The position numbers and the translations under genes were made by a program. A DNA stretch of 64,000 nt from a bacterium (GTDB lineage Bacteria > Hinthialibacterota > Hinthialibacteria > Hinthialibacterales > Hinthialibacteraceae): assembly GCA_041946805.1 (NCBI GenBank), contig JBHGBC010000007.1:18723-82722 (forward strand), written 5' to 3'. This document shows, in pieces, positions 2,873 through 39,400 of the stretch (positions are counted from its first letter, which is position 1; each line of letters opens with the position of its first letter). A model generated the notes under the pieces. It was given only the letters and a program-made list of their open reading frames with translations, was not told the origin of the DNA and ran no database searches.

Positions 2873-4284
2873 TGTTGCCCGTCCGGAGACACGCGCTTCA
2901 AATACAGCACCGCGTCCGCTTTTGCGAAGGGTGATTTCAATTGGCGGGTTTCGCCACCGGAAATGGATTCTCCCTTCTCTGTAGTATCCTGTGACGGATT
3001 GAACCATTCCACCGTGAACGATCCTTCCGCTGGCGTGAGATCCACGGTCACTTCGCCTTCCTCCGGCAGGTAGACCAGATATTCCCGGCCGGGATCGGCC
3101 AGGCAATACCGGCTGGAGGCCAGGTCATCCCGGGGCGTCATGTCCGCGAGGTTCATCCGTTCCGCGTAGCGGAGGGTATATCCCAGGGAGCGTCGGACGG
3201 GATCCCATTGCGGATCGAAGGGATTGCCCAAGGTCACGCCGTCATAGGGATCCATGAAGAGGGGATGGAGGCCGCGGGTGAAGCTCTTCCACACCCAGGC
3301 TTGATGGCCGCCGATGCCCCAGAGGTGGTCGGTGTCGTTGAGGATGACTTTCCGGCCATCGTTGGCCGGAGGATCTTCCCGGTAACCGCCATCGGGATTG
3401 GGGGAGATCCAATCGGCGGGGCTGTCGAACAGAGACTGATTGCCGCCGCCCTTGTACTGGAACGTCATGCCCACGGGATGCTGCAGGGGCTTGGATTTCT
3501 CGTACGCGTGAATCAGGCGGATCATGTGATATTGCCACGGCGTGGAAGGCGGGTGGTTCTCATTCGAGATTTCGTACAGCACGTTGTCCAGATCGTTTAC
3601 CGTGTCGATCACGTGCTTGACGTAGGCTTCCTGAATGGCCGTGACCGCGGGGTTTTTCAGCGTGTGGATTTCCAAGCCCTGGCCGTCGCTGTTCAAGTCG
3701 CCGTTGATGCCGTTGATGTTGTTGTCTTGGTTGAAGGGATGGCCTTTCCAGGCGCCGGGGGCGAATTGCACTCCCCAGCCTTCGAACAGCATGATGGAGA
3801 CATAAATCCCCCGGTCCCGCGCCGCCGCGGTCCGGGAGTGAAGCCGGTCGAAATAATCGGAATTCCAGCGCGCGAGGTCGAACTTGGGCTTGCCGTCCAA
3901 GGCGTTGCCCGGCCCGGTGCGCGCCCAGGGATGCGGCGCCGCGTGGTGCAAGGTAATCGGGGTATGCTGGCTGTTGGCTTCCGTGTTCCACCACACCAGT
4001 TCCCACGTCCACATGCGCATGAAGTTGTGGTTGAGGTTTTTCATCCAATCGAGGTAAGCGATGTAATCGAAAGGTTTGGGGGGATCTTCCGGACCCATAT
4101 CCACCAGGTTGTACCAGACGTGCGAACCAGTGAGATACACCGCTTTCCCGCTGCCGTCGGTGAAATAGCGGGGATTTTTCTCCAATACCCGCAACGGGCC
4201 TTTGGCGGGATCTCCCGCGGCGGAAAGGACAAGGACGAGCAGGAAGGCGAAGGCAAAACCGGATTGCGGGATTTTAATCTTCAT
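2869..4284 (-). CDS. Secreted TIM-barrel glycoside-hydrolase-like protein with C-terminal collagen-binding-like domain (DUF4038/DUF6298-like)
   Basis: Signal peptide; 'NPRYFTDGSGK', 'NVLYEISNE' (clan GH-A-like NE motif); C-terminal 'YCLADPGREYLVYLP..VEWFNP..SPF..DAVLYL'. Confidence 0.7.
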   Translation of the reverse strand: MKIKIPQSGFAFAFLLVLVLSAAGDPAKGPLRVLEKNPRYFTDGSGKAVYLTGSHVWYNLVDMGPEDPPKPFDYIAYLDWMKNLNHNFMRMWTWELVWWNTEANSQHTPITLHHAAPHPWARTGPGNALDGKPKFDLARWNSDYFDRLHSRTAAARDRGIYVSIMLFEGWGVQFAPGAWKGHPFNQDNNINGINGDLNSDGQGLEIHTLKNPAVTAIQEAYVKHVIDTVNDLDNVLYEISNENHPPSTPWQYHMIRLIHAYEKSKPLQHPVGMTFQYKGGGNQSLFDSPADWISPNPDGGYREDPPANDGRKVILNDTDHLWGIGGHQAWVWKSFTRGLHPLFMDPYDGVTLGNPFDPQWDPVRRSLGYTLRYAERMNLADMTPRDDLASSRYCLADPGREYLVYLPEEGEVTVDLTPAEGSFTVEWFNPSQDTTEKGESISGGETRQLKSPFAKADAVLYLKRVSPDGQQ

Positions 4285-15528: not shown

Positions 15529-17874
15529 TCATTGGAAATAATCCATCGCGGTAAACCGGTCTTTCCAATACGAATTGTTCCGGCGGGAATGGCGCTCCCC
15601 GGACGAGCGGCGGCCGGACCGGTCATCCTCTCCGGCGGGATCGTGCCGGCTGGACCGGTTGGATTGGGAATCGTTCTTGGCGGAATCCTGTTGTTTGGCG
15701 TCCAGCGTCTCCTTGGAGATGGTCAACCGTTCCACGCGAATGCCTTGATCGTCGAACGCGGAACGCAGGGCGGTGATATTCTGTTCCAGCAAGGCGCGGG
15801 TGGCGTGTTTTTCGGCGCTGATCTGGGCGGACAACAGGTTGTTTTCCAAGGTCATGCGCACGACGATATGGCCGAGCGATTCGGGAACCAGGCGCAAGCT
15901 GACCTGGCTGCGCTGCGAGCCGAGTGATCCTTGCACGGCGCGCACGATCTGGCGGGAAGCGGTTTCCTGCAATTGGGCGATTTTTTCGGTATAGGCCTGG
16001 GCCATGCCGGACGCGGAGGGAGTCTGGGCTGCGTGGGTTTCATTCATCACCGGCGGCGCGGCGTCTGGATGCATGGGCTGGTGGCATTGCGCCTGAACGA
16101 TTTCCGGATGGACCGGGGTTGCCGGGGTGGTGGCCGGACGGGAAGCCGGCGGCAAGGTTTCCACTACCGTGTCCAGGGTGGCGCCAGAAGACGGTGGCGC
16201 AGATTCGGTTTGGGATTCCGGAATCCGCTGGAGCTGGGTGTCCGGTTCGCGGTTGGCGGCTTCACGGTGAAGAGAAGCAGATGCGGTTGTCTTTTTCACA
16301 ACCGGTATGGCTATCTTTTCCATGGATTCGTTCGAGCATTGGTCCGATGGGCCGTCCTCGGCCATGACATCGATCCCAGGGATGAAATTCTTCCGTTTGT
16401 CATCCAGTTTCACCGAGCCGGGATCATGGGATGGGATTGTCTTACGGGCTTGCGGATTCGCGGCGGACAGGAAAACTGTCTGATCATCTTTCATTCCCCA
16501 CTTGGAAGGGATTTCACTGGAGTCCGAAGTGAACAAGAGAGGGGAACGGTCCGGGTACTCCGGGGCTGTGCCCGGGGCGCCGGTTGATGGGAATCCGTTC
16601 TGAAATCCGGAGGGCATTCCCTGAAACGGAGGAAGAGAATTGGCTGATTGGATGGTCTCCCTTGTTGTGGAAGTGTTGATTTCATCCGTACATTCAATGG
16701 GCTCTTCCAAGGTTATTTGAGTGAAAACAGATTCCGCCGGGAGAGACGGTTTCTCAGTTTTCCGCTGCATGTTCATATCTATTGGGGAGGAATGAACCTT
16801 GCCGGCGGCATGCGGCATGGAACCATGGTGGTCCGCGGATATTCTAGAATGCTCCGTCAGAAACGTGGTTTCAGCGGATAGTTGTGCGCCGGACTGGAAG
16901 TGTGTGACTTTCCTGACCGTCTTCTCTGAACTTATCCCTACGGGAATTGCGGTGTTGTCATTATTGGCGCTTTTGATGCCAACCGACTCCTCTTTGATAC
17001 TCCGCTTTGGGGAGTGCTTTGATTCCTGTATTTTATATTTCCCGGTGGGTGCCGGCTGATCAGGGCTGGACTGGATATTCAATGCCATCGGCCTGTCGGG
17101 AGTGGCTAAAAAATGCCGAGAATCGGCAATATTTTCCCACGTTGGGATATCATTTGGGGGGATGGATGGCCCGGATGGAGAAGGGATGGGAATGTCCGTT
17201 CCCTGAGGGTATCCTTGCACGGCAGGTTGGGACGGAAAATCGAAAGAAACACGTGTAGTTTGGCACTCATGCGATGCATTCGAGTCGAGGATGGTTTTTG
17301 ACACATCGATGGAGTTGTATCCGTTTGACTTGGCATCCCCTCGTTTATCCCGGACCAGGCTGCCAGCGTGAATAATCCGGGGGGAGAGAGCCGGGAGTTC
17401 GCCTGTTTCTTGCGGCGCCGATGCGAAGTCCAGCAGCCGTTCCGTCAAAGGGGAATCCGGTTTCGAGGAAATGCGGTTGCCTTCCAGATTTCCGCCCGCC
17501 GGGAGGGCCAGCGGATCCTGAGTGGAATCCGGCGGGGAAAGTATATTTAAGTGAATCGTGGGATTTTTGTCTTGGCCCTCGGTCCGCGTGGATTCGTGGG
17601 ACAAGAAAAGCGCACGGGCAGAGCTTTCCTTTAAGTTCTCTGCCGATATTGCTTTTCGAGACTGGCCAGGCCGGGCCGGGGAGGTTATGGTCACTTCCTG
17701 GCGGGAAGAATGATTGGTTGAAGGACGATGCAGCGCTTCCTGAAACAGGGGGAAGAAGGGGGAAGTGGAGGTTGAGTTCAAAACCGTGGGAGCCTTGGCT
17801 CGAAGCCCGGCCGCCGTATTGGAACGGGAGCGGTCCAAAAAGAAAACAGCGGCGTTTTGTCCCATGTTTACCAT
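15529..17874 (-). CDS. fliK: Flagellar hook-length control protein FliK (~780 aa)
   Basis: Long Pro/Ser-rich low-complexity N-terminal region; C-terminal T3S4 domain 'LRLVPESLGHIVVRM..TRALLEQNITALRSAF'; start uncertain (17907/17874/17865). Confidence 0.85.
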   Translation of the reverse strand: MVNMGQNAAVFFLDRSRSNTAAGLRAKAPTVLNSTSTSPFFPLFQEALHRPSTNHSSRQEVTITSPARPGQSRKAISAENLKESSARALFLSHESTRTEGQDKNPTIHLNILSPPDSTQDPLALPAGGNLEGNRISSKPDSPLTERLLDFASAPQETGELPALSPRIIHAGSLVRDKRGDAKSNGYNSIDVSKTILDSNASHECQTTRVSFDFPSQPAVQGYPQGTDIPIPSPSGPSIPPNDIPTWENIADSRHFLATPDRPMALNIQSSPDQPAPTGKYKIQESKHSPKRSIKEESVGIKSANNDNTAIPVGISSEKTVRKVTHFQSGAQLSAETTFLTEHSRISADHHGSMPHAAGKVHSSPIDMNMQRKTEKPSLPAESVFTQITLEEPIECTDEINTSTTRETIQSANSLPPFQGMPSGFQNGFPSTGAPGTAPEYPDRSPLLFTSDSSEIPSKWGMKDDQTVFLSAANPQARKTIPSHDPGSVKLDDKRKNFIPGIDVMAEDGPSDQCSNESMEKIAIPVVKKTTASASLHREAANREPDTQLQRIPESQTESAPPSSGATLDTVVETLPPASRPATTPATPVHPEIVQAQCHQPMHPDAAPPVMNETHAAQTPSASGMAQAYTEKIAQLQETASRQIVRAVQGSLGSQRSQVSLRLVPESLGHIVVRMTLENNLLSAQISAEKHATRALLEQNITALRSAFDDQGIRVERLTISKETLDAKQQDSAKNDSQSNRSSRHDPAGEDDRSGRRSSGERHSRRNNSYWKDRFTAMDYFQ

Positions 17875-17934
17875 CCGTGGCGACTTTCGCGGCGGCTCCG
17901 GCCGCAATGTGGGAACAGATAATGATCAAGGAAA

Positions 17935-17950
17935 AGCAAAGTCGATGCCA
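17935..17950 (-). promoter_or_regulatory. Sigma-54 (-24/-12) promoter of the fliK-flgD-flgE operon
   Basis: Minus strand TGGCATCGACTTTGCT matches the TGGCACG-N4-TTGCW consensus (GG-N10-GC). Confidence 0.8.
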
Positions 17951-24897: not shown

Positions 24898-26091
24898 ATG
24901 AAACCGGAACGCAAACGAATCGAGGAATGGCGCGCGGCGCTTTCCCCGGAATGCCGCGGCCGGATCGATCAGGCCTGTGACATAATCTGCCGGACGAAGG
25001 AACGGGGCGGCAAAATCGCCGTGGTGACCGGTAGCGGGCCGAACGTGCATGAAGGCGTCACGACGCAGATCGCCGAACTGATGCGGGCGGGAATCGTCGA
25101 TGGGGTCACCACCAGCGCCGCGGTGGTGGCGCACGAAATGGGGGGCGTGCTGGACCGGGTGAAACGGGTGGACGGCCGCGCCTTGGGCATCGCGCCTGAC
25201 CTGCTGCCCCGGGGCGGATTGTTTGAGTTTTCGTTGATCGATAAGACACGGCTGGAAGTGGTCGCCGGCGATCTCCCCATCGATTGGGAACTGTGGAACC
25301 AAGGGGAGAAAGCCAGCGGCGCGGTGATCATCAAGGCCGCGGGCAACATGGGCTATCCCATGGGATTGTGGATCGAGCAGGCGGCGGAGCGCATTCTCCA
25401 TCTGGCCCGGGACCAGAATCAGCCATTCGAAAAAATCGCGGGAGACTATGCCGATGAACGCACCATGACCGGCCAGGGCGCGCGCCGCGGAGTGCCAATG
25501 TTGGTCACGATTCCCCAGTTGGTTGGCGGGGGGATGGTGGGATTGGCCATCGGCGACAGCATCCCCATTTCCCAGCGCGCCCGCCGGATCGCGGAACTGC
25601 TCGAATCGGCCGAGGTCATCATCGAATCCGCCGTGGTTTTGACCCAGGAGATCCACGACGGCCCCTATGAAACCTTTACCGGACACGGCATCTGGGCGGG
25701 CTGGCAAGGCCAATCCACCTACCGGCTGGAAAACAAGCAGCTGATCCGCATCGATCTGGATTCCGCCCTCGACCGCGCCTGGCGGTTCGAACGCGAATCG
25801 CGGACCGTACAGGAGGCGATCGACAAGGGACTTCCAAAAACCAAACTCATGGATATTCCGTTTCGCATGGAAATGTCGGGATTCGCCCGGCTGGAAGGCA
25901 GTTTGCCCATCATCGCCGACATCGGTGTGGTGTGGCCCATTCTCGCGGCGGGCCTGGAGGAACGGCTGGGGATCGAGTTGGACTTTATTTCCGCCCCGCA
26001 ACAGACGCCGGAAGGCCAGCGCATGCGCGCATGGATCGCGGACGAAATCCAGCCGATCCAGCCGGTGCGGGAGAGAACGCTTACCGGATGA
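24898..26091 (+). CDS. Deoxyhypusine-synthase-like (DHS-fold NAD-binding) hypothetical protein
   Basis: 'HEGVTTQIAELMRAGIVDGVTTSAAVVAHE' and 'TMTGQGARRGVPMLV' resemble DHS/homospermidine synthase segments. Confidence 0.5.
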   Translation: MKPERKRIEEWRAALSPECRGRIDQACDIICRTKERGGKIAVVTGSGPNVHEGVTTQIAELMRAGIVDGVTTSAAVVAHEMGGVLDRVKRVDGRALGIAPDLLPRGGLFEFSLIDKTRLEVVAGDLPIDWELWNQGEKASGAVIIKAAGNMGYPMGLWIEQAAERILHLARDQNQPFEKIAGDYADERTMTGQGARRGVPMLVTIPQLVGGGMVGLAIGDSIPISQRARRIAELLESAEVIIESAVVLTQEIHDGPYETFTGHGIWAGWQGQSTYRLENKQLIRIDLDSALDRAWRFERESRTVQEAIDKGLPKTKLMDIPFRMEMSGFARLEGSLPIIADIGVVWPILAAGLEERLGIELDFISAPQQTPEGQRMRAWIADEIQPIQPVRERTLTG

Positions 26092-26159
26092 TCCATTATT
26101 CTTCTGAAAAATACGATCGGTAATCATCCGAATTGACTGGCCAAATTTTTCACCTGATC

Positions 26160-26191
26160 CCCTGTCCTCCGGGAGAGGGTTCGGGTGAGGG
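26160..26191. repeat. Degenerate REP-like palindrome
   Basis: CCCCTGTCCTCCGGGAGAGGGTTCGGGTGAGGG between convergent genes. Confidence 0.7.
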
Positions 26192-26307
26192 AGGTCCTTG
26201 CTTGGGCGTCCCTCACCCGGCTGCTCCCTGATGGGGGGGAGAAGAAAAACAAACTGGCGAGGCATCGGTGTTTCCAAGGAAAATTGGCTAGGGACTGGAA
26301 TCCAGGC

Positions 26308-26655
26308 TTAGCTGGATGACTGGGCTTCGGGCGGCTCGTGTTTCGGCTTCTGAAGTTCCATCATGCGCGACCACACCCAGGTACAGGCTTGGTGATATTC
26401 CTCCTTGCCGGGTGGAATCGAATTCTTGAAGTTCGTGTAATCCATGGTTTGGACATAATCCGCGAGCCATTTTTCCACTTCCGCCACTGGAAGGAACGCG
26501 CGGAAGCGGTAATCGGCTTCAGGGTCCTGAAAAACCTCCGCGTCCGGAAAAGCGGATTCGATATCCCCTTGGCAACGGGCGCGGACCAAGCGGCGCTCCG
26601 GATGGTTCCGGTCTTTCACGATCGAGAGAAAAGCCTGGCTGGTGAAGATCCACAT
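26308..26655 (-). CDS. Conserved hypothetical protein (MWIFT..LSIV..LVRAR..DY.FRA..DY.NFK type)
   Basis: 115 aa, GGAGAAG RBS, 24 nt downstream of the HIRAN-ARPP-1 gene; the motif pattern is recalled from phage/island proteins and not verified. Confidence 0.75.
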   Translation of the reverse strand: MWIFTSQAFLSIVKDRNHPERRLVRARCQGDIESAFPDAEVFQDPEADYRFRAFLPVAEVEKWLADYVQTMDYTNFKNSIPPGKEEYHQACTWVWSRMMELQKPKHEPPEAQSSS

Positions 26656-26679
26656 GTATCTCTTCCTCCGCGCGATGAT

Positions 26680-28170
26680 TTACGATTCCACCGGGAACGC
26701 CGCGAGATGGCAGAGGGAATCCTCGAACCACACGCCGGTCCCGTAGAGGGAGGATTCCCGCACCATCAGTTCGTTGCCCAATCCGATGGACGGATCGCAC
26801 AGATTGACCGATAGGCTGAGCCGGACGAGGAAATCGCGGGCTGCCTGGGGATCGGTTTTCGGCAGGCGGCGGGGATCGAAAGCCGCCTGGGTGAAGTACG
26901 ATCCGGCCAGCTGGTCCCAGCAATCCTTGAAAACGCCGGGATCATGGAAGAAATCCAGGCCGATGATGGCATCCCCGCTGCCCACGAGGACCCCCGCCGC
27001 GTTGTCCGGCAGTACCAATTTTTCCCGGAAGGATTGTGTCTTTTCCTCCGATTGCTGGTAGCCGTCGGTGACCGAGGAGGTGGGGGAGCAGGCGTGCAAC
27101 TCATGCAGGTGCAGATCCACCTCTTCCCAGACCTCGCCCTGATCGCTCATGGCCATCCCGGTGGAGGCCCGGCATTCCTGGACACTGCGCATTTTCTTGC
27201 CGCGCAGCCGGGGGTGGGCGTAATACGCGGATTGGAAGCGGCGGGACGAATACCGCCAGCGCCCCCGCTCCACGCAACTGACGGGGATGCGCAGCGACTG
27301 CTTCGCGGCGACCAGGATCGACACGTTGACCACCCGGTTCTGCTTGGCCCCCACCAGAATTTCCCCCTCGGGGACCAGGAGGGGTTTGGAACCGAGGTTG
27401 TGGACCGTCAGTTCCTGCACCCGGCCTTCTTCGGACACTTCCTCGATCTGCGCCTCGCCGGTTTCCAGGGCCTTGCGCAGCAGGACGAAGGGGGCCTGCG
27501 AGCCGTTGAGCGGATACAGCGGGAACAGGGTGAGGTTTTGGTGATGGATGGCATCGCCCATTTTCAAGCCGCCGATTTTTTCGCGGATCGTGTCCAGCAG
27601 CGAGTAGGTCCGCGAGTGTTTCAGGGCTTCCGCCTTGGCGGGAAAGAGGGCGAGAAGCAGGTGCGTTTCGGGAGCCACGCCGCGCGCCGCGGTTTTCTCC
27701 AGCCGTTTGGACAGACCCCAGATCACGTCCGGATTTTTGTAGGTGTCCAGTTTGACGAACACCTCGCGGATGGTCTCATGCAGCGCCTCGACGTCGGTGG
27801 CGGGATTTTCGATGGGCGCCAGGATCGAAAAACCGTGCCGCGTCAGGAACACCTTGAGTTCCGCGGGAAAGCCCTCGTGCCGGCGGAAGGGATTCGGATT
27901 CCACGAGGCGGGAACCCGGGCCTCGAGCCAGACCGCTCCCCGGTCGATCAAGGGCGCAAGCCACCGCGTCATCTCGCGGGAAAGATAACCGACCCGCGCG
28001 AAATCCGGATTCTTCACCAGAATCGCGTTGGAGTCGTGCGGATTGTAGATGTCCCGCTCCAGATGCAATTCGTCCCCGGGACGGACTTCGCCCGCCACGT
28101 ATTGGCACCCGGTCAGCCTTGTCTGAATCTCACCCAGATACTTTTCTTGTACATCGCCGATGGGGGTCAT
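26680..28170 (-). CDS. HIRAN domain + ARPP-1 (DUF6569) fusion protein
   Basis: N-terminal 'GCQY..LHLERDIYNPHDSNAILV..VGYLSR..LAPLID' (HIRAN); C-terminal 'VHNLGSKPLLVPEGEILVGAKQNRVVN..IPVSCVERGRW..DQGEVW' (DUF6569/ARPP-1); GGGAG RBS before ATG 28170. Confidence 0.8.
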   Translation of the reverse strand: MTPIGDVQEKYLGEIQTRLTGCQYVAGEVRPGDELHLERDIYNPHDSNAILVKNPDFARVGYLSREMTRWLAPLIDRGAVWLEARVPASWNPNPFRRHEGFPAELKVFLTRHGFSILAPIENPATDVEALHETIREVFVKLDTYKNPDVIWGLSKRLEKTAARGVAPETHLLLALFPAKAEALKHSRTYSLLDTIREKIGGLKMGDAIHHQNLTLFPLYPLNGSQAPFVLLRKALETGEAQIEEVSEEGRVQELTVHNLGSKPLLVPEGEILVGAKQNRVVNVSILVAAKQSLRIPVSCVERGRWRYSSRRFQSAYYAHPRLRGKKMRSVQECRASTGMAMSDQGEVWEEVDLHLHELHACSPTSSVTDGYQQSEEKTQSFREKLVLPDNAAGVLVGSGDAIIGLDFFHDPGVFKDCWDQLAGSYFTQAAFDPRRLPKTDPQAARDFLVRLSLSVNLCDPSIGLGNELMVRESSLYGTGVWFEDSLCHLAAFPVES

Positions 28171-28279
28171 GATCGTTCTCCCTGTCTGGACAGTATGGAC
28201 CAGCCTCAATTCCAAGCCTGCCATGCCCGGTTCCTTGGAAATCCCATGAAGAGGATGTCTTCTTGGGATTCCCCTTGAA

Positions 28280-28295
28280 TACAAGAACGATGCCA
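28280..28295 (-). promoter_or_regulatory. Candidate sigma-54 promoter for the HIRAN-ARPP-1 operon
   Basis: Minus strand TGGCATCGTTCTTGTA (GG-N10-GT; the -12 C is replaced by T); shares CCTGGCATCG with the fliK promoter. Confidence 0.6.
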
Positions 28296-28458
28296 GGTTG
28301 CGATGGCGCGGGACTCCCGGGGCGTAATTGTCTGAATCCAGTGATCCTGATGAAGATAAAATTACCAATAGGGTAATATTTCGGCGGGGTTGGGGCCAGG
28401 ATTTGAGTTCAATTATTGCGTGGGAGATTCAATATTTGAGCACGGGGCGGCGGCGGGA

Positions 28459-30033
28459 TCATTCGTCCTGCACCCATTTGCGGACGGTGTTGGGGGAGAT
28501 CCCCAACGCCTCGGCCGCCTGAGAGATGTTGCCGCCGAAAAGCCGGTGGACGTGCCGGATGTAGGTTTTGCGGATTTCCGCCTCGGTCACGACCTCGGCG
28601 GGATGGGATGGACAGAACATACGCCGGCCGGAGGCGTTGTCCTCATCCGCGCGGGCGGTGCCGGCGTGGAACAGGGCGATTTCCTCGGCCAGAATATCCC
28701 GCACCGGCTGTTTCATGTAAGCCGCCCGCCGGAGGATGTTGATGAATTGGCGGATGTTGCCCGGCCAATCGTATTTGTAAATGGCCTCCCAGTCGGCCTT
28801 GGTGATTTCCAGGGCATACCCTTTGTGCTTGAGTTCATAGATCTCGCTGCGGGCGATGGAGGGGAGATCCTCCAGCCGTTCCTTGAGCGGGGGAACGTGC
28901 AAAAACAGGACATTGAGGCGGTGGAACAGGTCCCGGCGGAACGTGCCCGCGCGGACCATGGCCGGCAGGTCCTGATTGGTGGCGGCGATCACGCGCACAT
29001 CCACGTCATGGGATTTCATGGTGCCCAGGGGCGTGACCCGGCGTTCCTCGAGCACGCGCAGCAGCTGGGTTTGCACGGGCAGCGGAAGCTCGCCGGCTTC
29101 GTCAAGGAACAGGGTACCATCGTCAGCCGCGGCGAACGCCCCGGGCTGGGCGTCCTTCGCTCCCGTGTAAGCCCCCGCGGCATGGCCGAACAGCCGGTCG
29201 TGGGCCAGATCGGTGTTGAGGCTGAGGATGGCGCAATTGACCGGAATGAAGGGACCTGGGCGGCCGCTGGCCTCGTGCAGCAGCCGGGCGGCGATTTCCT
29301 TGCCGGATCCCGTGGGACCGATCACCAGCACGGGCTCGGGGACCGGTCCCAGGCGGGCGATCTGAGTGCGCATGCGCTGCATGGCCTTGCTGTTGCCCAA
29401 GGGAATGGCGTAGCGCCCCTCTTTCCGGTAGGATACGGCTACGCGGCGGTCGGCTTCGGTGAAGGGAACCAGCCCCGCGAGTTTTTGGATGACATGGATG
29501 TAACTGGACTTGTCCTCGTATTTGAAATACCGGCTGGCGCCGGCCGCGATCAAATCGTGCCAAAGGGCATCGGTTTCCGACCGCTTCAGGTCGCGGTTCA
29601 CAAATTGCCGGGCCAGGGTCAACAAAGTTCCCGTGATCTCGGTGTCCCGGATTTTGAGATGCTGATACACCGCCTCGGTGTTGCTCGAACAGGGTATAAA
29701 CACCGGCACGCACACTGGGATCAACAAGGTCCGGTATTCATCCAGGTATCCCCGCCCGCAGTACCACAAGACCTTGATCCGCTTTTTTACAAACGCTCCG
29801 AGGACGGTGGTCACCCCCGCGATGTTATCATACACACCCACGCCGCAGATATGGATGATGCCCGGCGGGGGATCCAGTCCGGCGATTTCCTCCAGGGTCA
29901 GGGCGATCCGTTGCGCGCTGGTGGTGACGATCTGGGCCTTGGGGAAGCGCTGCAACACCATGGCGGCGGCGCATGCCCCATCCGTGCCGTTGGTGGTGAG
30001 AATCAAATGCGGCTGATTTTGGGAATACGGCAT
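28459..30033 (-). CDS. Sigma-54-dependent transcriptional activator (bEBP) with N-terminal DHH-like domain
   Basis: 'GPTGSGKE', 'VNCA', 'GAYTGA', 'LFLDEAGEL', 'FRRDLFHRL', 'WPGNIRQ' and a Fis-type HTH; N-terminal ~220 aa is not a REC, PAS or GAF domain. Confidence 0.9.
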   Translation of the reverse strand: MPYSQNQPHLILTTNGTDGACAAAMVLQRFPKAQIVTTSAQRIALTLEEIAGLDPPPGIIHICGVGVYDNIAGVTTVLGAFVKKRIKVLWYCGRGYLDEYRTLLIPVCVPVFIPCSSNTEAVYQHLKIRDTEITGTLLTLARQFVNRDLKRSETDALWHDLIAAGASRYFKYEDKSSYIHVIQKLAGLVPFTEADRRVAVSYRKEGRYAIPLGNSKAMQRMRTQIARLGPVPEPVLVIGPTGSGKEIAARLLHEASGRPGPFIPVNCAILSLNTDLAHDRLFGHAAGAYTGAKDAQPGAFAAADDGTLFLDEAGELPLPVQTQLLRVLEERRVTPLGTMKSHDVDVRVIAATNQDLPAMVRAGTFRRDLFHRLNVLFLHVPPLKERLEDLPSIARSEIYELKHKGYALEITKADWEAIYKYDWPGNIRQFINILRRAAYMKQPVRDILAEEIALFHAGTARADEDNASGRRMFCPSHPAEVVTEAEIRKTYIRHVHRLFGGNISQAAEALGISPNTVRKWVQDE

Positions 30034-30446
30034 GATTTGTAAGAACAAGCATCTCTATTCGGGTGATCAAGCTTCTATACTATATTATTCCAGGACGGGT
30101 CATGGTAGATCTCATGGAACACGCATCCGGATTTTCGATGAGTGTTGACGATCCATGGTTATATATTTCTGGGGGAGAAATAGGGATGTTGTCCGAGAGG
30201 TCTCCCCATCGATTGGTTACGCGAAGGGTGTCATCCAGGCGAAACGGGGTTCTGGCGATTGTCCAGGATTGAAACTCCGGATGCCAGAGGATCCTCCAAT
30301 ATTATGGAAGGGAGGCGCGTTGCCGCGTGCCCCCATTATTTGAATTGGACATCCCTCCCTCCTCTCCCAGAGAAATTGGTTCCTCGATTTGATTCAGTTG
30401 CGGGATGCAACGCATCAAAACCGAACAATTCCCGGATGGCCCATTT

Positions 30447-33400
30447 TTAATGCGTCCCTTTCCACCTATCCGAGAAGAGCAGCAAGTCTTTCCGGTCGAT
30501 CCGGCCGTCCTGGTTGAGATCGGCGGCGGATGATCCATGCCAGTTGTGGATGAGGATCAGCAGGTCCACGCGGTTGACGAACCCGTCCTGGTTCAGATCA
30601 CCGAATAGTGAATGAGCCTTCGTCGTAAACCAGGCGAACTCGGACCACTCGCTCCATTGTTCGTTGGCGTCCTGGTACCGGACGCGCCATTCGTAGTTTT
30701 GGCCGCTTTGGAGTGGACCTAACGGGATCTTGGTTTGGGAGGTGGGAGCGAGGGATCCGCTTTCCCAAACCAATGTGCCGAAGGTGTACTCGCGGATTTC
30801 GAATTGCGCCGCCTTCCGCGGAGTGCCCAGGGGATGCGCGTATTCCGAGGCTTGCAGGACCGGGGTCAAGGCGGGCGAATACGCGCCGGCCACGGGAGAA
30901 AGAGCCTCGGGCGGGTTGGGCGGCTGCGTGGCGAGAGTATGGATGGTTTCGTTGGTGACGATCGCCGCGTTTGCGTCGAACACGATGGATGCCTGGTTGC
31001 GGATGGCGGTCCCCGGCTGCAATCCGGCCGCGGGATCGATCCGGAACGTGACATGGCCCTCGCCGCGGCCCGTGGCGGAGTCGTTGGGCGGCAGGAAGCC
31101 CGCGGTCCCGTCCAGGGGGATCGCGCCGGTTTCGGGATCGATCAGGGTCAACGTCCACCGCGCCCGGCCGGTGTAGGGATTCAGGCGCGCCTCGATGTCC
31201 ACCGCGTATTCATCCCAGGCCACACGTTGATAGTGATCGGTATGCCCCGCCGGGATGGGAATGATCCGGCCGCCGATGGCCACCTCGGACAGCTCGAAGG
31301 AAGTCCAGTCCAATTGGTTGCTCAGATCGTCGGTGAGGATGACCTGTTGGACCGAGGCCGTGGCTTCCGGGGTGTTTTCGAAGAAGATGGTGTAGGTCAG
31401 GGGATCCTGGCCGGAGATGACCGCCTCCTTGCCGCCGGGACCGGTCTTCTCGTTGGGATCGCGAGTGACGACCACAGGGGAGTTGGTTTGCTGGACGGGG
31501 GTCGTGGGCGGCTGGGGGAAGGGAGATTTTTCGCCCGTGCAATCGAGATACTTTTGAAACGCCTTTTGCGCCCGCGCGACGTACAACTGATACGCGTGGT
31601 AGCGTCCGGAGGCGGCGTTGGTGTTATCGCGGATGCTGCGGACCGCATCGATGGTGGATTCGACCAGTTTGATCGATTCGTTGACGATCCCGATCAGGTT
31701 GAGGACCGGTTCGAAGGCGCGCTTGAATTCTTCACTCTTAATCATATTCATAAGTGGTTTCAACTTGGCCAGGAGACCCAGGAAGGTATGAAATTCCTCG
31801 GCGATGGAGCGCCAAGTCAGCTCGTTGTTCCGTGCGTCTTTCAAGAAGGTGAGCCGGCCCTTGTATTGTTCGATGTAGGAAAGCACCTTGAGCAGCCGCT
31901 GCCCCCAGACTTTGCCTTCCTTCAGTTTCTGGATGGCGGCGATGATCTTGGGGCCGTTGACCACGGCGGCGGCTCCGGCTTCGTAAGCGGCCAGTTCGAG
32001 CTCGGCGATCTTCCCGGCCAGCACCGCGGCCTGCAGGCCTACTTCGCCACCGCTGGCCAGCCAGGTGAAATTGGCGTTGCCCTTGGCCTTCCAGGCGTCC
32101 ATGTAGACATATTCCGATTGCGCGAGCAGTTTGCCCACGTTTTTCGCTTCATTACGGCATTGGGCATCGGGATTTTTGACGATGGCGTTCCAGTTTTGCA
32201 ATCCGCCCGCGTGGTTGATCATCTCCATCACGCGGGGATCGCGGGCCAGGCCGCTGCGTTCGGTCACGAACAGACGGTAATCCGCGGGAATGTTGGTGTT
32301 GGAAAGCCAATCGAGGAATCCATCGAGATATTCTTGAAAGCCCCGGGCATTCATCAACGATGCGCTTGGATCATCGGCGAGTTTTTTGGTGGTATCGACG
32401 AATTGCGGTGTGATGGGCCAGGGATCGAAGCCCGCGCCCGGCGCGAGCGGCAGTGCTATATCCTTGACGAATGAGCCGGATAGATCGGTGACTTCCACGC
32501 TGTCTTTGGCAACCTGGGAACCGAAAATAATATCCAATTGATAACTTCCGACAGCGAGAGGCGTGGACTGATACACCCCCTCCGCGCTCGCGGTGGAGCG
32601 GGCGGCTTCCAGGCCATCCAGTTTGAAGATCACCACCGCGCCCGCCAGTGGCAACAGGGATGCGCTGTCCCGGATCGTGCCGGTTACGGTTTGGTCTTCA
32701 CTGGGCAGGGTGATGCTCAATGGCGGTGTCGCGCCACTCTCCAGCACCGCAAATCCGGACTGCTTGTACCGGGGGAATCCCGCGGCTTGCACGTGGACCT
32801 CATAGGTTCCGGCGGCCATCCCTGCCATGGTGAAAGTTCCATCCCCGGCGCTGAAAGATTTGAGTCCGGGATCCCCGGCCGCTTCTTTGAATAGGACCAC
32901 TGCGTCCGAGACGGGATCTCCGGTCCGCGCGGAGACGATTTTGCCCGTGACCAGGCTCTCCGCGGGCAGGGCGAAATCCAGGGATAATGCGGAATCGCCC
33001 AGCGTGACTTGTTGCGTCATCCGGCCCAGGCCGGGTGCGATGACCGCCAGCAGGTAGTTCCCCGGAACCAGGTGGTTCAACTCATACTGGCCGTCCGCGC
33101 CGGATGAGGCCATCGATCCCTGCCGTACCTCCGCGCCGGGATCGAGAGGAACCGCCTCGATGATGGCGTTCTCCACTCCCAGGGCCGAGGTTCCCGCGGT
33201 GATGGTCCCGGCGATCTTTCCCGATGCCGCGATGAGAGTGATTCCATCCATGTTTCCGTTGACCTGGATGGTCTGTCGCGGGAATGTGTAATCGGCCAGC
33301 AAGGCGCTGAGAGTCAGACTGCGTTGGGGCAGGTTATGGAAGGCGAATCCGCCTTGCCCATCACTCATCACCATGCCCAGCACGACTCCATCCACGCTGA

Positions 33401-36400
33401 CCGCCGAGACGAGGCTGTCCGCCAGGGGCGTAATGCCGTCCGCGTCCAGCACCCGGCCGGTGAGGGATCCACCGGGCGGGAGGAGCACGTCGCCCAGCGT
33501 GTTGGCCGCGCCGCTCTGGATTTCGATCATCCGGATTTGCAGTTCATATCCGGTGGCGTTGATCCAGACGCTATGGATTCCCGGCGTAAGCCGGGACACG
33601 GTGAAATTCCCGAGCGCGTTGGTTTGGGCGGTGTCGGACGTTTGCGTGACCAGGTTGGTGAACAGCAGGATGGCATTCTCCAAGGGTGATCCCGCCGCGG
33701 CATCCAAGACCCGGCCTTGGCAGACCGCGCCGCGCTTCATCTGGATCGTCAGGCCGTTGAGTCCCGATTCGGGCACGGTGACCGCGAGCGGCGCGAGGAC
33801 CTGGTACCCGTCCGCCTGGCAGCGCAATTCATAATTACCCGGCGCGAGTTCGGCAATGGAATATGTCCCATCCTCGAATGACCAGGCAGGCAGAAGGCTT
33901 CCCTGGGGAGTTTTGAGATAGATCATCGGGTTGGCGATAGGCTGGCCGGTATCGGCGTCCTGGACCACGCCGTTCAAGTACACGGAAGGCTCGAGCAGGA
34001 AATCCACTTCCTTCAAGGCCCGGCCGTTCCAGACCTGCAGCCCGTCGTAGCGTTTGGCGGCGTACGAGGGATGCAGCGCTTCGAGGCTGTAAAGGCCCGC
34101 GGGCAGGGCGGGGAAGCGGTAGGCCCCTGTTTCATCCGCCACCATGGCGCGGATTCCGCCCAGGCCGTCCTGCAGCGTGAGCATGACGCCCTCGAAGGGC
34201 GTACGGCCGGGCATCTCGAATACGGTTCCCTCGATGATCCCGCCATAGGGAACCCGCCATTCCACGCCGGATACGATTTGCCCTTCGTTCACGTTGATTT
34301 GACCCGGATTGACGCCGGGGTAACCGTTGACCTCGATGGAGTAGATGCCGGAGGGCAGATTGATGAACTCGAATTGCCCTTCGGCGTTGGTATCGGCGGT
34401 GGTGGAGAAGGCGGGAATCCCGGAGCTGGAGATGTTTTGGATCAAGATACTCGCCCCGGTCTGGGGATGGCCGTATTCCTCATCCACCAGCCGGCCGTGG
34501 ATTTCCCCGCCCGGTTTTTGTTGGAGGGGGCCGAGGAGGCGGGCCAGCAGTTCATCCGCGCCGGCCAGGATGACGCCCTGACTCCACAAGCCGGTGGCCA
34601 TTGTGGCGAGGGCGTCTTGGTAATCACCCCAGGTGGGGCCCACCGCGTCCACGTAGGCGGTCCATTCCGGCGCGTCCCACGCCACCAGCGAATTCAAGTC
34701 CTGGATGGCCTCCAGGCTGAACGAAATGCGATTCGCGGCGCCTGACTGGAAATAAACGGCGATGGAACCTTCCGCGCCGGGGGCCAGAATCCCCGCCGGG
34801 CCTTCCCGGGGGACCGCGAGGAACCGGACGGGCTTCGTCTCCAGCGGCGCGTCCGGATCGAGGCCGAGGGGGACATCCGCTTCGGACCGGAGCAGCAACA
34901 CCGGCGCGGTCATGTCCGCGTCGCCGGTATTTTGATACCGGATCAGCAGCGTATACGTACGTCCCGGGCGGATGGCGTTGGGGGCCAGCAATTCCGCTTC
35001 CAGGCGCGGGCCGATACCGGGAGTCACCTGGAACGCGTTTTCGAAGGTAGATTGAGCGATGCCGCCCGGCCATTTCACCTCGAGATTGTACGAACCGATT
35101 GGCGCACCGCGCAGATTCATCCGCGCGTGCAGTTTCGTTGAATCGGGAACCAGGATTTCATAGGCGGAAATGGCCGTCCCGCCCGGTCCCGCCAGGCGTA
35201 CCTCCACGCCGGATTGGAAGAGGGAGCCTTCGAGGGACAATGTGACATCGCCGAGATTGCCACCCTGCGTGGGCGACAGCGAAACGACATATTGGTCCAC
35301 ATAGTCGAATTGGATTTGATACGTTTCCTGGCTGTCAGCCAAACCGATGGCGAAGACGAGGAAATAATAATCCCCCTCCCCGGTTTGGGTCATCAGCAAT
35401 TCATACGCGGGCCGCAGTTGAGGTGTAATAGACCGGCGGTCATACCGCGCGGGAGAAGGTTCGTACCCCAGGGCGGCAAAGATGTGGTACCGGCTGGAAG
35501 CGTTGGCGTGGATCAGACGGCACAACAAGTTGCGCCCGGCTTGCGCGTGGAATTTGTACAATTTCAGGCCATATTTCTCGACGGTTTCGGAATAGGGCGT
35601 ATGGAGCTCCACCTCGCGCGCCACGAGGACCTGATCCGGGACCTGCTCTTCGCTGGTGAACCACGGCTCGAACAGGACTCCCTGCGAGACGGAGTCCCCG
35701 TTCCCCGGGCCGCTTCCCGAGGGGCCGTTCGCGCTGCCCCACCAGTTGAAGGTGGCGTTCACGTTGATCGAGGGCGAGAGGTTGTTCACTCCCGCCTGGT
35801 TGCCCACGATGTGGGAAAACTGCACGGCCGCGTCCATGCCCGATTGCCCGTTGGTTTCCAGCGCCGTCCCGTTGTTCAGAAAGCGGCTGTAGGCGGTGGT
35901 CATGCGGGCGGATTGCAGCACACGCAAGGCAAATTGATTGTATTCGAAACGGCAGCTCTCCAGGCTCACATCCGCCAGGCCCCGCGCTTCCACACCCGCC
36001 CGGCCGATGCCCGCGTTGCGGATCACCGCATGGCGGATCGATCCCTTGCCTTCATCCTGGAGGAGAATGCCGGCATAGACCGACCAGCGCGTCGCGTCGG
36101 GAACCGTGGGTGGAGCGGCCAGCTGGACAGGCTGATTTATCTGGCCGTTGATGCCCAGGAATCCCGAGACCACGAATCCCGCATCCCCTCCTTCGAGGGC
36201 GATGAAAGTCCCCGGCCGGATTTGCAAGGAACCGGTGGGCGCGATGGTCCGCGAACGGTGAATTTCGTAATATCCGCCCAGGAGCGCGTGGAGCGCGCCG
36301 CTTTCTTTCAACTCCCCGCTGCCGATCTCCAATCCGGCCTGGTCTCCGGAGACGATGTTGCCCGGCTCGGATGACGCGGCGGTGAGGAAATTCACCGAAC

Positions 36401-39400
36401 CCGTCCGGTTGTTGCCCAGAAATTGATTGTTGCCGAAGCGGATACGCGATTCATCGCCGTAGGTGAACAACGCGTCCGTGTTTTCCTGGAACACGTTGCC
36501 CCGCAGCGTGAGTTGGGCCTGGTCCCGCACAGCCACGCCCTGCCCGTTTTTTGTGAACCGGCTGGCGGTGATTTCCACCGCGGCCTTCTGATCGCCCCGG
36601 AGGCCGCCCCGGGTGTTATCCTCGAACGACAGGTTGGTGAGCGTGGCGGCGGTGGCTTCGGCGATCATCCCGTAGTTCAGGCTCTCGCGCAGCGTCAGGT
36701 TTTCCAACGTCACATCGGCGCCTGCCATGAGGCGGAACTGAGATTCCAATCCCTCGGACGCGAAATTGGAGCCGCCGTATTCCACCTCCGCCTGGCTGAG
36801 GCGCCCGGACGATCCGGCCGTGAACACCAGCGCGCCCCAATGACCCCGGGCGGGAACTGTCTGGGCCGATGTGAAAAGAATGGGGAGCGTATCGGAACCG
36901 GCCGCATCCAATCTCCCTTTTATGAGAAGATCCGATGAGATTTGCAGAAACTGAATCGTGTTGCCCTTGGCAATGGTAATCCGGGCTTCCGGGGCGATTT
37001 CGACGTCCTCGGAGATCAGGTAGGGAATGCCCGGTTCGATCCACTCGCCGCTGCCGGTCCAGCTGCCGCCCGCGATCTTGATGGCGTTGAAGCGGTTGGC
37101 CACGGCGGCGGCATCCTGAATGACGGGAAACGCGTTGGGGAAAATCTGCGCCGCGAGGCCCTTGTTATTTTGGATGACCGGTTCGATGAACACGGGGGAG
37201 CCGTTCTTGATCCAAATGCCGTCGCTGTTGCTGTATTGAAACACGCAATTTTCCAAGGCGGGCGAGGCTCCGTCACAAAATACCATGGAAGCCTGCGTAA
37301 GGCTGGCGAAGTTGGAACCGCCGTATTCCATCACGCAATGCTGGAGCCGGGTGATGGCGTTGTTGGTGGTGGAGCTGAAATAGATCCCGCCCCAGGATCC
37401 CGGCGCGGGCGTCCGATGGAGCGAAGTGAAACGGATGGGATTGGACACGGTCCCCACGGCCCACAGCGCGCCGTCCACCCGGAGATCGGCCGCGATGTCC
37501 GTGAACTGGAGTTCCGTTCCCGGATCGATGGTCAGCATGGCTTCCGGGGCGATCACCACATCGTTGCGGATCAGGTAGGGGATTTCGGCATAATCCCACC
37601 GCCCGCTGCTATTCATGGTTCCGTTCAGGATCAGGATGCCGTCGAACTGGTTACTCTCCGCCGAGACCGCAGTGAATTGCGGGAAAGATTGGAGGTCCAT
37701 GAAAGCGGCGTAATTGGCGTTGGCTGCGAAACGCACGGATGCCACGTTCGCGCGGGAAGTGATCAGGCTCAATCCGTTGGTATGGGAGTTGGCGATCCAG
37801 CAATCGCTCAGCGTGGGGGATGATGCTTCGCAGCGGATCATGGAATCCACCGTGGCGGAGGCGAAATTGGTTCCACCGTAGCGGATCTGGCAATGTTTCA
37901 AGATCGAGCCATCCGATCCCGAGTTGCTGAAGAGGATTCCTCCCCACGCGTTATCGGGGATGTCTTTCAGGGAGGTGAACACGATGGGCCGGCCGGTTTC
38001 CCCCGCCGCGTACAAGGTTCCCTGGATGATGAAATCCGTGGCGATGTCTCGGGATTGCACCACCGTCCCCGGATCGATGGTCAACGTGGCGCCGGAGGCG
38101 AGGGTGATGTCCGAATCGAGAAGATAGGGGATTTCCGCGTAGTCCCAGCGGCCGCCGGCCAGGATGGTCCCTCCCCGGATCAGGAGCGCGTCGTATCCGT
38201 TGCCCTCGGCCGTGATGCCGGTGAACACGGGGAAACACCGCGCGTCCATGTAGAGGGCGGCCGCCCGGTTGTTCACGAAGTGAATGGAGGTCAATTGGGC
38301 CTGGGAATCGATCAGGCTGATCCCGGCGTTGGCGGAATCCTCAACCCGGCACGCGTTGAACGTGGGCGAGCTGCTTTCGCACCGGATCATGGAATCAATC
38401 GCCGCGGACGCGAAATTGCTTCCCCCGTGGCGGACCGCGCAATGTTCCAAAACCGAGGCGTTGGCCGTGGAACCCGTGAAGAGGATGCCTCCCCAGCGGT
38501 TTTCCGGTTTGTCTCCCATCGATGTAAACAATATAGGTTGGTCCGCGCCGCCCACGGCATGCAAGGTTCCCTTGACCAGCAGGTCGACGGCCAGGTCTCC
38601 CGTTTGGATGACCGTGGCGGGATCGATGGTCAACGTCACGCCGGATTCGAGGGTCACATCGCCCGCGAGGAGGTAGGGGAGTTCGGCATAGTCCCAACGC
38701 CCACTGGCAGTCAATGATCCGCTCCGGACCTGGATGGCGTCGAAACCGTTGCCCTCGGCGGTGACGGACGTGAACACGGGAAACGAGGCGGTGTCCATGG
38801 TGACCGCCGCGCGGGGATTCCCCTTGAACAGGACCGATGAGATCACGGCGGCTGAATTCACCAGGCACATCCCGTGATTCTTTGAAGCCTCCATCCGGCA
38901 ATTGCGGAACAGGGGGGAGGCGTTTTCGCAGCGGATCATGGCGTCCTGGGTGGCCGAGGCGAAATTGCTGCCCCCGTGGCGGAGCTCGCAATATTCCAGC
39001 AGGGACGCGTTGGTTTCATTGCCTGAAAATAGAATACCGCCCCAACTGTTCGCGGCCTCGTCGTTCAGGGAGGTGAAAACAATCGGATTGCCGCTGGCGC
39101 CCACCGCCGTCAGTTTGCCGGCCGCGATCAGGTCGTCTTCGATTCCGGCAAACTGGATGACGGCGCCCGCCTCGATGGTCAACGCCGCGCCGCTGTCGAT
39201 CTGGATATCATGGTCAACCAGGTACGGCAGGTTCGAAAACCGCCAGACATTCGTTTCCAGGATATGGCCCCCATCGATACGGAGGCCATCGAAGCGGTTG
39301 CCCGTGGCGCTGTTGTTGGACAAGGCGGGGGAGCAGGAGGGAGTCATCTGGACCGCGTCTTGCGCGTTGGCGGTAAAGACGCAATCGGAAAGGACCGCTT

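Follow-up and report, generated by a model that had tools for sequence, protein, structure and literature searches.

The window considered here is a stretch of 64,000 nucleotides (contig JBHGBC010000007.1 of assembly GCA_041946805.1, positions 18,723 to 82,722) from a bacterium of the Hinthialibacterota, relatives of which have been deposited as Candidatus Omnitrophota or Candidatus Hinthialibacter. On the minus strand of this 64-kb window, three open reading frames (ORFs) span positions 26308-30033. They encode a bacterial enhancer-binding protein (bEBP), a fusion of a HIRAN domain with an ARPP-1 domain, and a small protein of 115 residues; with the sites that separate the first two genes, they form what we shall call the cassette. 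An original prediction, made from the letters of the sequence, had described three co-oriented genes, the last two 24 nt apart, and the ORF coordinates bear this out. Listed from the 5' side of the cassette, its features are:

28459..30033, minus strand: bEBP gene, 524 residues from the ATG at 30033 (open frame 28459..30048, 529 residues)
29389..30033, minus strand: N-terminal sensor domain of the activator, residues 1-215, with a predicted DHH fold, without DHH triad and without DHHA1
28900..29397, minus strand: AAA+ sigma-54 interaction domain, about residues 213-378 (PF00158 at 218-383 of the 529-residue ORF)
28429..28439, minus strand: candidate enhancer (upstream activating sequence, UAS) site 1, TCAAATATTGA, of the form TCA-N5-TGA
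28409..28419, minus strand: candidate UAS site 2, GCAATAATTGA, centred 119 nt upstream of the -24 element's TGG
28281..28295, minus strand: sigma-54 type -24/-12 promoter, TGGCATCGTTCTTGT, read as TGGCAT-N4-CTTGT
26680..28170, minus strand: HIRAN + ARPP-1 fusion gene, 496 residues from the likely start ATG at 28170 (open frame 26680..28368)
26308..26655, minus strand: gene of the 115-residue protein (MWIFT...), after a 24-nt gap
26157..26221, no strand assigned: dispersed repeat of the repetitive extragenic palindrome (REP) type, immediately 3' of the cassette

The activator and its promoter

By its domains and motifs, the product of the first gene is a sigma-54 enhancer-binding protein. Pfam finds Sigma54_activat (PF00158, 7e-56, 189 bits for a cut-off of 20.2), AAA_lid_14 and, at the C-terminus, a Fis-type helix-turn-helix (HTH; HTH_8, 7.8e-6). 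As had been read from the DNA, the translation has intact motifs for Walker A (GPTGSGKE) and for Walker B (LFLDEAGEL), and the loop expected to contact sigma-54 is GAYTGA, a variant of GAFTGA. The start at ATG 30033 agrees with the N-termini of relatives. The sequence marks of a bEBP are present: an AAA+ module with both Walker motifs, the contact loop, an HTH together with candidate enhancers, and a -24/-12 box in a genome that encodes rpoN (DNA-binding domain match at 2.2e-60). The succession sensor-AAA+-HTH, with tandem enhancers some 100-150 nt upstream of the promoter, is also that of NorR, PspF and HrpS, the last of which, a functional activator, naturally carries GAYTGA (PMC3105312); their sensors have another fold and their target genes are others. 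For the AAA+/HTH part, the best NCBIfam bEBP model is RtcR (4.3e-74), with 250 bits for a cut-off of 650 and an alignment confined to model positions 184-503, and the RtcR_PspF2 model of PADLOC-DB 2.0 matches the same part. About 27 strong bEBP matches are found in the genome, only one of which has an N-terminus of the DHH type.

The 288-nt spacer between the activator and HIRAN-ARPP genes (28171-28458) holds the -24/-12 box. It is relatively AT-rich, as had been noticed: the GC content is 0.535 at 28000-28399, against 0.60-0.68 in the flanks. An alternative in-frame ATG at 28224 would extend the HIRAN-ARPP protein to 514 residues. The 18 extra codons (28171-28224) are conserved in a same-genus relative, reading at the protein level MAGLELRLVHTVQTGRTIM as compared with MKRLELRLLHMVQTGRTIM in the relative, and the true start may lie at 28224.

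The pattern TGGCAYNNNNYTTGY has two matches in the window, for 0.22 expected. The match outside the cassette, TGGCATCGACTTTGC at 17936-17950 on the minus strand, lies about 29 nt upstream of an ORF of 792 residues (15529-17907, minus strand) that is similar to FliK (Flg_hook). This flagellar gene is a plausible sigma-54 target. Its box suggests that flagellar genes of the organism are under sigma-54 control, and provides an internal check of the promoter pattern.

Comparison within the phylum used 35 species genomes, G000 being that of the window. All 13 related HIRAN-ARPP operons are preceded by a box of the form TGGC[AG]Y-N4-YTTG[TCA], so that the conservation of the box, offered in the original prediction as a check of the idea, extends to the whole set. 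The candidate UAS pair starts 20 nt past the stop codon of the activator gene. The two 11-bp TCA-N5-TGA palindromes, 20-21 nt apart, score at least 11/12 in 12 of the 13 loci. In 12 of 13, too, the second palindrome is centred 119-122 nt away from the TGG, while the stretch between palindromes and box diverges among relatives. Mononucleotide shuffles of the same regions yield such a pair in 0.04 loci on average. Both sites combined with TGGCRY at the expected spacing are seen only once in the 6.7-Mb assembly, which makes it probable that the activator serves one target in this genome.

The most telling arrangement is that of G011, with two copies, and of G006. There, the HIRAN-ARPP operon resides on another contig than the activator gene, which is followed by genes for unrelated secreted enzymes, and yet it keeps both box and palindromes. 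With an architecture conserved across kin, and with these sites staying by HIRAN-ARPP even when the activator is elsewhere, the circuit is well supported: judged from sequence comparison, the activator very probably controls HIRAN-ARPP through this promoter. Farther out in the family, in the Hydrogenedentes record L025 and in metagenome loci, 9 of 11 intergenic regions that separate the activator from its neighbour have a GG-N10-GC box with a score of 8/10 or more.

A side observation concerns the contact loop. In 25 members with an assignable promoter, a -12 element other than GC accompanies GAYTGA in 8 of 11 cases, as TTGT or TTGA, and GAFTGA in 4 of 14. Covariation of loop and -12 element is possible (Fisher p = 0.047, kinship being ignored), and the pattern recurs in loci of the Myxococcota type.

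Sensor and effector

Pfam, NCBIfam, PADLOC and PHROGs have no match for residues 1 to about 215 of the activator. The AlphaFold2 (AF2) model of these residues, built on an alignment of 59 sequences, has a mean predicted local distance difference test (pLDDT) of 95.5 and a predicted template modelling score (pTM) of 0.91. Foldseek against the PDB returns 18 matches at E<=0.001, beginning at 3e-5, with RecJ, PAP phosphatase, RecJ-Cdc45 and NrnA at the top. VIA-align gives Z 15.6 to PAP phosphatase (8a8k_B, root-mean-square deviation 4.0, 182 residues aligned) and Z 15.3 to RecJ-Cdc45 (7bih_A), with about 190 of the 215 residues aligned; by their entry titles, the first 41 rows are RecJ, Cdc45/GAN and related proteins, and unrelated alpha/beta proteins appear from Z 9.2. 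As modelled, the sensor has a DHH fold. The DHH-like sensor first proposed from the translation therefore stands as a fold and falls as a sequence family, for which Pfam gives nothing.

The sensor thus resembles the DHH/DHHA1 phosphoesterases (RecJ, NrnA, PAP phosphatase) and Cdc45 in fold, with Z 13-15.6 over about 190 residues, and differs from the enzymes in having no sequence relation to them, neither DHH triad nor DHHA1, and a fusion to an AAA+ activator. The tripeptide DHH occurs in only one of the 59 family members, at position 204, off the motif position and outside the core sheet. The best-conserved columns are D18, G19, A20, A24, S39, G64, G66, W90 and Y96. A redox or metal-binding cysteine cluster was considered and rejected, C21, C63 and C92 being conserved in only 35-42 of the 59. 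Cdc45 is an inactive version of the fold; likewise, the model suggests that the sensor is probably a non-catalytic DHH fold serving regulation. By analogy with the substrates of DHH proteins, it would bind a nucleotide-like ligand.

The family is rare, with 89 clusters at E<=0.001 among 1.84 billion representatives, one of which is named Myxococcota; the domain is nearly always N-terminal, in proteins of 500-570 residues. Two variants deserve mention. P0077, a metagenomic protein of 812 residues, has a calcineurin-type metallophosphoesterase (Metallophos) fused ahead of the DHH-fold sensor and AAA+ module. In L099, a stand-alone protein of 324 residues (2790-3764, minus strand), which starts with a motif of the HGDLDG type and has no Pfam match, is encoded upstream of and divergently from the activator; it may be a related DHH-like protein.

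In the effector, Pfam recognizes HIRAN (PF08797, 2.5e-17, 62.9 bits for a cut-off of 24.7) and ARPP-1 (PF20208, 9.8e-78, 261.9 bits for a cut-off of 27, profile positions 2-297 of 297). The HIRAN part aligns over its full length with solved chains of the HIRAN domain of HLTF (1.1e-15), where it is joined to a SWI/SNF helicase and a RING domain, in contrast to the ARPP-1 fusion of this bacterium. The HIRAN domain of HLTF binds the 3'-OH ends of single-stranded DNA (ssDNA), acting as a 3'-end reader in fork remodelling. PADLOC-DB 2.0 has a candidate family, PDC-M03B, that matches the HIRAN region, and nothing for ARPP. For the latter, a profile search of the PDB finds no sequence-related solved structure. 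When 25 ARPP sequences of the loci are aligned, 20 columns are invariant; all are present here, and they include catalytic-looking residues: K276, Q277 and R279 in GAKQNR; C299, E301, R304 and W305 in SCVExGRW; Q344 and W348 in DQGEVW; and H488.

ARPP was defined computationally in systems centred on ADP-ribosylglycohydrolase (ARG), with an absolutely conserved cysteine and glutamine, and a reaction with sugars similar to that of SRAP was proposed for it (Iyer et al., 2022; PMC9503650). C299, Q277 and Q344 fit that description. This was the only paper found on ARPP-1, DUF6569 or PF20208, in a search beyond which lay most subscription journals, and it treats the domain by computation, not experiment. 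Three further partners with which ARPP forms two-gene neighbourhoods are named in section 3.8 of the same paper: HIRAN, a WYL regulator and a deacetylase. The HIRAN + ARPP-1 fusion predicted at the locus is confirmed by Pfam, while the association itself was already in print. The REase-ARP domain of those systems is, moreover, an alternative cargo of the present activator family (L097). The differences lie in the layout, HIRAN and ARPP forming one polypeptide here and a gene pair there, and in the regulators, which there are WYL and Nudix transcription factors and here a bEBP with a DHH sensor (PMC9503650, in its part on these systems). The phosphatase that is coupled to ARG systems, of the rhodanese-phosphatase, calcineurin-like, HD or HAD kind, is seen only in other members of the family, as Metallophos in P0077 and HD_5 in L105.

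The words sigma, DHH and enhancer do not occur in the main text of PMC9503650, supplements aside, and DHH, enhancer-binding protein and sigma-54 were not found together in the literature that the search covered, most subscription journals again excepted. Hence, as far as that search reaches, the statement that no characterised system has this architecture holds for the control layer, sigma-54 with a DHH-sensor bEBP, which is undescribed; it does not hold for the HIRAN-ARPP pairing, already described by computation (PMC9503650). The closest parallel in logic is RtcR-RtcBA, where the receiver of a bEBP is also replaced by a nucleotide-handling fold, beside a single sigma-54 operon for enzymes acting on nucleic-acid ends. 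The sensor is CARF there and a DHH fold here, in keeping with an RtcR model that matches only from position 184; the targets are RtcB and RtcA there, HIRAN-ARPP and the 115-residue protein here. The comparison with an RtcR circuit made in the original prediction is therefore apt in the sense of 'works like', and fails as membership: 250 instead of 650 bits, no CARF domain, no rtcB or rtcA.

Linkage, cargo and the small gene

A DHH-type N-terminus is present in 12 of the 35 phylum genomes, at 13 places, and at 9 of these a HIRAN-ARPP gene is directly downstream on the same strand (G000, G001, G012, G010, G014, G009, G002, G018 and G016). With further cases outside the phylum, the co-occurrence of activator and HIRAN-ARPP for which a neighbourhood survey had been proposed is recurrent. 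Eleven of the 12 genomes with the sensor have a Pfam match to ARPP-1, and in the twelfth HIRAN-ARPP is cut by a contig end. ARPP-1 itself is found in 16 of the 35, and five genomes have it without this activator: G024, G025, G026, G027 and, by the N-terminal query, G017, where, 3 kb away from HIRAN-ARPP, the contig ends with the C-terminus of an activator. A second HIRAN-ARPP gene of G001 has no box in front of it. An ARPP operon of G028 is 6.5 kb distant from the activator and preceded by a canonical box. There, at 2402 and 4761 (plus strand) of L084 (G028:C1), two near-identical sigma-54 boxes (TCCTGGCACGCCGATTGCA) are seen 2.4 kb apart. The first precedes an ORF of 117 residues and the ARPP gene, the second an ORF whose frame is interrupted and whose similarity to ADP-ribosylglycohydrolase is weak.

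Beyond the phylum, 14 loci came from scanning species genomes for HIRAN-ARPP. In three of them the activator adjoins (L022, L023 and L025, the last from Hydrogenedentes), HIRAN-ARPP occurs without any bEBP in two (L024, and L028 where a WYL-WCX regulator is next), and ARPP occurs alone in nine. Metagenomes yielded 34 loci, of which 19 measure less than 5 kb. ARPP adjoins the activator in six (L091, L095, L096, L098, L101 and L111), of which L101 and L111 look identical and L091 resembles G001, and a protein of 136 residues adjoins it in 12.

This 136-residue family (135-148 residues, MAINGxRFL...; for example L023:5499-5909, plus strand, L014:8902-9309, minus strand, and L095:7296-7742, minus strand) has no match in the libraries and is the commonest neighbour of the activator family. 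Its gene usually comes directly after the sigma-54 box and in many cases diverges from the activator; of the 13 phylum operons, 6 have it between box and HIRAN-ARPP (G009, G010, G014, G018 and both G011 copies). It is absent from the window, and a search with the 136-residue query did not find it in G000, an assembly 96.8% complete. A co-regulatory role, like that of PspA or HrpV, is conceivable for the protein. Other cargo, encoded beside the activator or beside the 136-residue gene, may take the place of HIRAN-ARPP: REase-ARP (PF22558, 5e-31; L097), a DUF2779 nuclease (L099) or HD_5 (L105). DnaB_C-like ATPases are among the neighbours in L093 and L102, and a GGACT gene is inserted between the 136-residue gene and HIRAN-ARPP in L095.

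The third gene of the cassette is an optional accessory. Of the 12 operons whose 3' end could be seen, 5 have it behind HIRAN-ARPP (G000, G001, G012, G014 and G010, the last with two small ORFs in between). Three solo copies have neither box nor palindromes: that of G003, whose neighbours include WYL and Cas3 genes, that of G006, and another of G014, at a second site. A copy with 27% identity lies in a prophage-like stretch of G031 (L019). The original prediction had included this 'MWIFT' gene in the system; as a core member it cannot be kept: it is in a minority of the operons, solo in three places, and its relatives are mostly from phages. Where it has been retained, its identity is 58-70% across four genera.

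The 115-residue protein has no match in Pfam, NCBIfam, PADLOC or PHROGs, and its family numbers 17 clusters among 5.8 billion proteins. Its AF2 model (pLDDT 83) has no solved relative, Foldseek giving nothing at E<=0.001 and VIA-align a best Z of 4.2 among 48,161 chains. It does match predicted viral proteins (BFVD, 9e-10) and large, mostly viral Atlas clusters, and tblastn recovers it in 9 phage records at 30-47% identity. In each of the three records of Proteobacteria phages that were examined, the small gene has a NUDIX gene on one side and a DUF4942-methylase gene on the other, and a giant protein is encoded upstream of it. One record labels this giant protein an ADP-ribosyltransferase; in another, it reaches 29 bits against ADPrib_exo_Tox.

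Several leads on the fold of this protein were followed. By structure it matches an Atlas cluster of 279 residues that is 100% NUDIX, with a template modelling (TM) score of 0.84 by query, a lead and nothing else to a NUDIX fusion; a sequence search for longer forms found only a 254-residue protein with an acidic tail, and BLASTP of the small protein against two phage NUDIX proteins gave no match. A likeness to chaperones of the T3SS (type III secretion)/YbjN type, to be compared with the TY-chaperones of ARG systems, is not claimed (Foldseek E 0.2-0.3, VIA Z 3.1-3.2), and hhalign shows no relation to the 136-residue protein (probability 0.1).

A decayed copy of the cassette was found at 1240-2300 of L018 (G002:C95). 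N- and C-terminal fragments of the activator remain, palindromes and box are intact, HIRAN-ARPP is gone and the small gene is broken, a NERD-kinase gene coming next. G002 also has an intact activator with HIRAN-ARPP, on another contig.

Around the cassette of the window lie a KdsB-type gene, an ORF of 397 residues and a repeat protein of 3152 residues, none of which has a counterpart beside the cassette in the same-genus genome or at 12 other loci. The 397-residue ORF (24898-26091, plus strand) has a weak similarity, below cut-off, to deoxyhypusine synthase and to Rossmann domains of the ArgZ type. The 3152-residue protein (30447-39905, minus strand), directly upstream of the cassette, looks secreted and has long internal repeats. 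Of the two boundaries originally described, the REP is confirmed as a dispersed repeat: 26157-26221 has at least 40 copies on many contigs, at 79-92% identity over 35-65 nt (40 scored of 287 first-look candidates, for a repeat length of about 40-65 nt). The other boundary, the relic-like region at 30049-30446, occurs once in the genome. Elsewhere in the phylum, the cassette is followed within about 1 kb by brxA, brxB and brxC in G010, and by a NERD-kinase-NACHT protein in G009.

Possible roles: conflict with phages or care of DNA ends

The circuit would run as follows. The C-terminal HTH of the activator would bind the two TCA-N5-TGA palindromes, the DHH-fold sensor keeping the AAA+ ATPase inactive until it meets its ligand; the substrates of DHH enzymes suggest, by analogy, a nucleotide or short oligonucleotide, a single-stranded end, or a derivative of ADP-ribose as the likeliest. 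The ATPase would then remodel sigma-54 RNA polymerase at the -24/-12 promoter some 120 nt downstream, and HIRAN-ARPP-1 would be transcribed, together with the 115-residue gene in this genome. Docked through HIRAN on the 3'-OH ends of DNA, the effector would use the invariant Cys, Gln, Lys, Arg, Glu and His residues of ARPP to act on a sugar or an ADP-ribose-type moiety at these ends.

What is this circuit for? We put at about even the chances that the cassette belongs to the conflict between phages and their hosts, as a defence, and not to core repair, because it is patchy, has variable flanks, keeps company with defence genes, swaps its cargo for nucleases and includes a small gene with phage kin; the joint proposal, a working circuit with a role in conflict, is likewise evenly poised. 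The range of cargo, the defence neighbours and the NUDIX and ADP-ribosyltransferase kin in phages would direct it to a conflict centred on NAD and ADP-ribose rather than to housekeeping. Chemistry related to ADP-ribose, or to a sugar adduct, at DNA 3' ends is a tentative proposal, of rather low probability, drawn from the published contexts of ARPP (PMC9503650) and from the phage NUDIX/ADP-ribosyltransferase neighbourhood. More speculative still, and in our view unlikely as a whole, is the idea that the dead DHH fold is a new class of bEBP sensor for an ADP-ribose derivative or oligonucleotide made by the phage through ADP-ribosyltransferase and NUDIX action, that it switches on an ARPP which removes or exploits sugar or ADP-ribose adducts at DNA 3' ends, and that the 115-residue protein is a captured modulator.

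The main rival to phage defence is a response of the cell to damage of its own DNA or to replication stress. The sensor would then detect ssDNA or short DNA oligonucleotides released by damage, and HIRAN-ARPP would protect or process the 3' ends of stalled forks or abasic sites in the manner of SRAP/HMCES. The closeness of its HIRAN part to that of HLTF, a reader of 3' ends at remodelled forks, the presence of the ssDNA-handling RecJ and Cdc45 among the structural neighbours of the sensor, and RtcR, the precedent (by NCBIfam model name) of a repair operon run by a bEBP, are consistent with it, as is the SRAP-like covalent reaction with sugars put forward by the authors of ARPP (PMC9503650). 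However, the cassette is confined to 12 of 35 genomes, its flanks differ even within the genus, BREX, NERD-kinase and Cas3 genes are its neighbours, its cargo is exchanged for REase-ARP and DUF2779 nucleases, and a decayed copy (L018) exists. These traits argue for accessory conflict genes rather than core repair, and we hold the damage response to be rather improbable. Less probable again is the view of HIRAN-ARPP as a growth-arresting effector, of the abortive-infection type, with the 115-residue protein as its inhibitor or antitoxin and sigma-54 keeping both silent until a trigger comes. It would account for the tight coupling of the two genes here, across 24 nt, and it recalls the HIRAN proteins proposed as partners in HipA toxin-antitoxin modules (PMC11706625) and the HIRAN region shared with PDC-M03B; but 7 of the 12 operons lack the small gene, so that the effector is tolerated alone, and the small gene occurs solo and in lytic phages.

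The extent of the unit can be questioned too. If it comprises two genes only, activator and HIRAN-ARPP, the 115-residue gene would be a passenger derived from phages, co-transcribed in one sub-lineage and devoid of a role. This has somewhat less than an even chance of being right. The limited presence behind HIRAN-ARPP (5 of 12), the solo copies in G003, G006 and G014 that have neither box nor palindromes, and the mainly viral kin, with a distant copy in a prophage-like region, are what a passenger would leave. Yet, where present, the gene is directly behind HIRAN-ARPP save for the two small ORFs of G010, its identity is kept across four genera, the decayed G002 locus retains promoter and small gene together, and the module that houses its phage relatives, with NUDIX and ADP-ribosyltransferase genes, shares its biochemical theme with ARPP. 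As for a mere accident of adjacency, in which the activator would control other genes and the -24/-12 sequence be a chance match, it appears very improbable. The -12 element is indeed non-canonical, bEBPs are numerous in the genome, and the activators of G011 and G006 precede unrelated secreted enzymes; against this, the box is found in 13 of 13 operons and the palindrome pair at a fixed distance in 12 of them, the composite pattern is unique in the genome, the sites travel with HIRAN-ARPP unlinked from the activator, and of the two matches of the promoter pattern in the window, for 0.22 expected, the other belongs to a flagellar gene.

A number of observations weigh against the proposal of a sigma-54 circuit for phage conflict, and it must be read with them in mind. 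At the promoter, the -12 element is TTGT where TTGC is canonical, and with about 27 strong bEBPs in G000 a bEBP beside any given gene is not rare. For the sensor, a profile search of PDB sequences reveals no relation to DHH proteins (best E 0.49), so that the binding of a ligand is argued purely by analogy. DHHA1, which binds the substrate in DHH enzymes, is absent, the sensor ending at about residue 215 with the AAA+ module directly after. The genomes compared are kin, so that the counts overstate independence, and some members have neighbours foreign to defence (CoA ligases and a pentapeptide protein in L108, secreted enzymes). Matches in PADLOC-DB 2.0 are at the level of domains only, with nothing for the small protein. 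By Pfam, there is no ARG, Macro or rhodanese-phosphatase gene among the three of the cassette, and the five ARG matches of the genome are on other contigs; an ARG gene under the same type of promoter in G028 is a lead that we do not retain, its score being 19.3 bits for a cut-off of 26.2 and its frame interrupted. Finally, in an Actinomycetia phage the small gene lacks the NUDIX/DUF4942 context, and the phages where that context is found, of about 90 kb and alike in size and gene order, may display one inherited arrangement.

For ARPP-1, a widespread domain whose invariant residues look catalytic, the cassette, with one activator, one promoter with its candidate enhancers and one effector, provides a compact handle. 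If the circuit works as described, the DHH fold would join the short list of nucleotide-enzyme folds recruited as sensors of bEBPs, of which CARF in RtcR is an example, a reporter would open a route to the inducing signal, and the cassette would offer one to the substrate of ARPP at DNA ends. Should the sensor respond to a signal made by phages, this would be the first inducible anti-phage system gated by sigma-54 and built on the chemistry of ARPP. A working circuit would also tie sigma-54 control to the NAD/ADP-ribose branch of the conflict between phages and hosts, a branch that rests largely on computational prediction.

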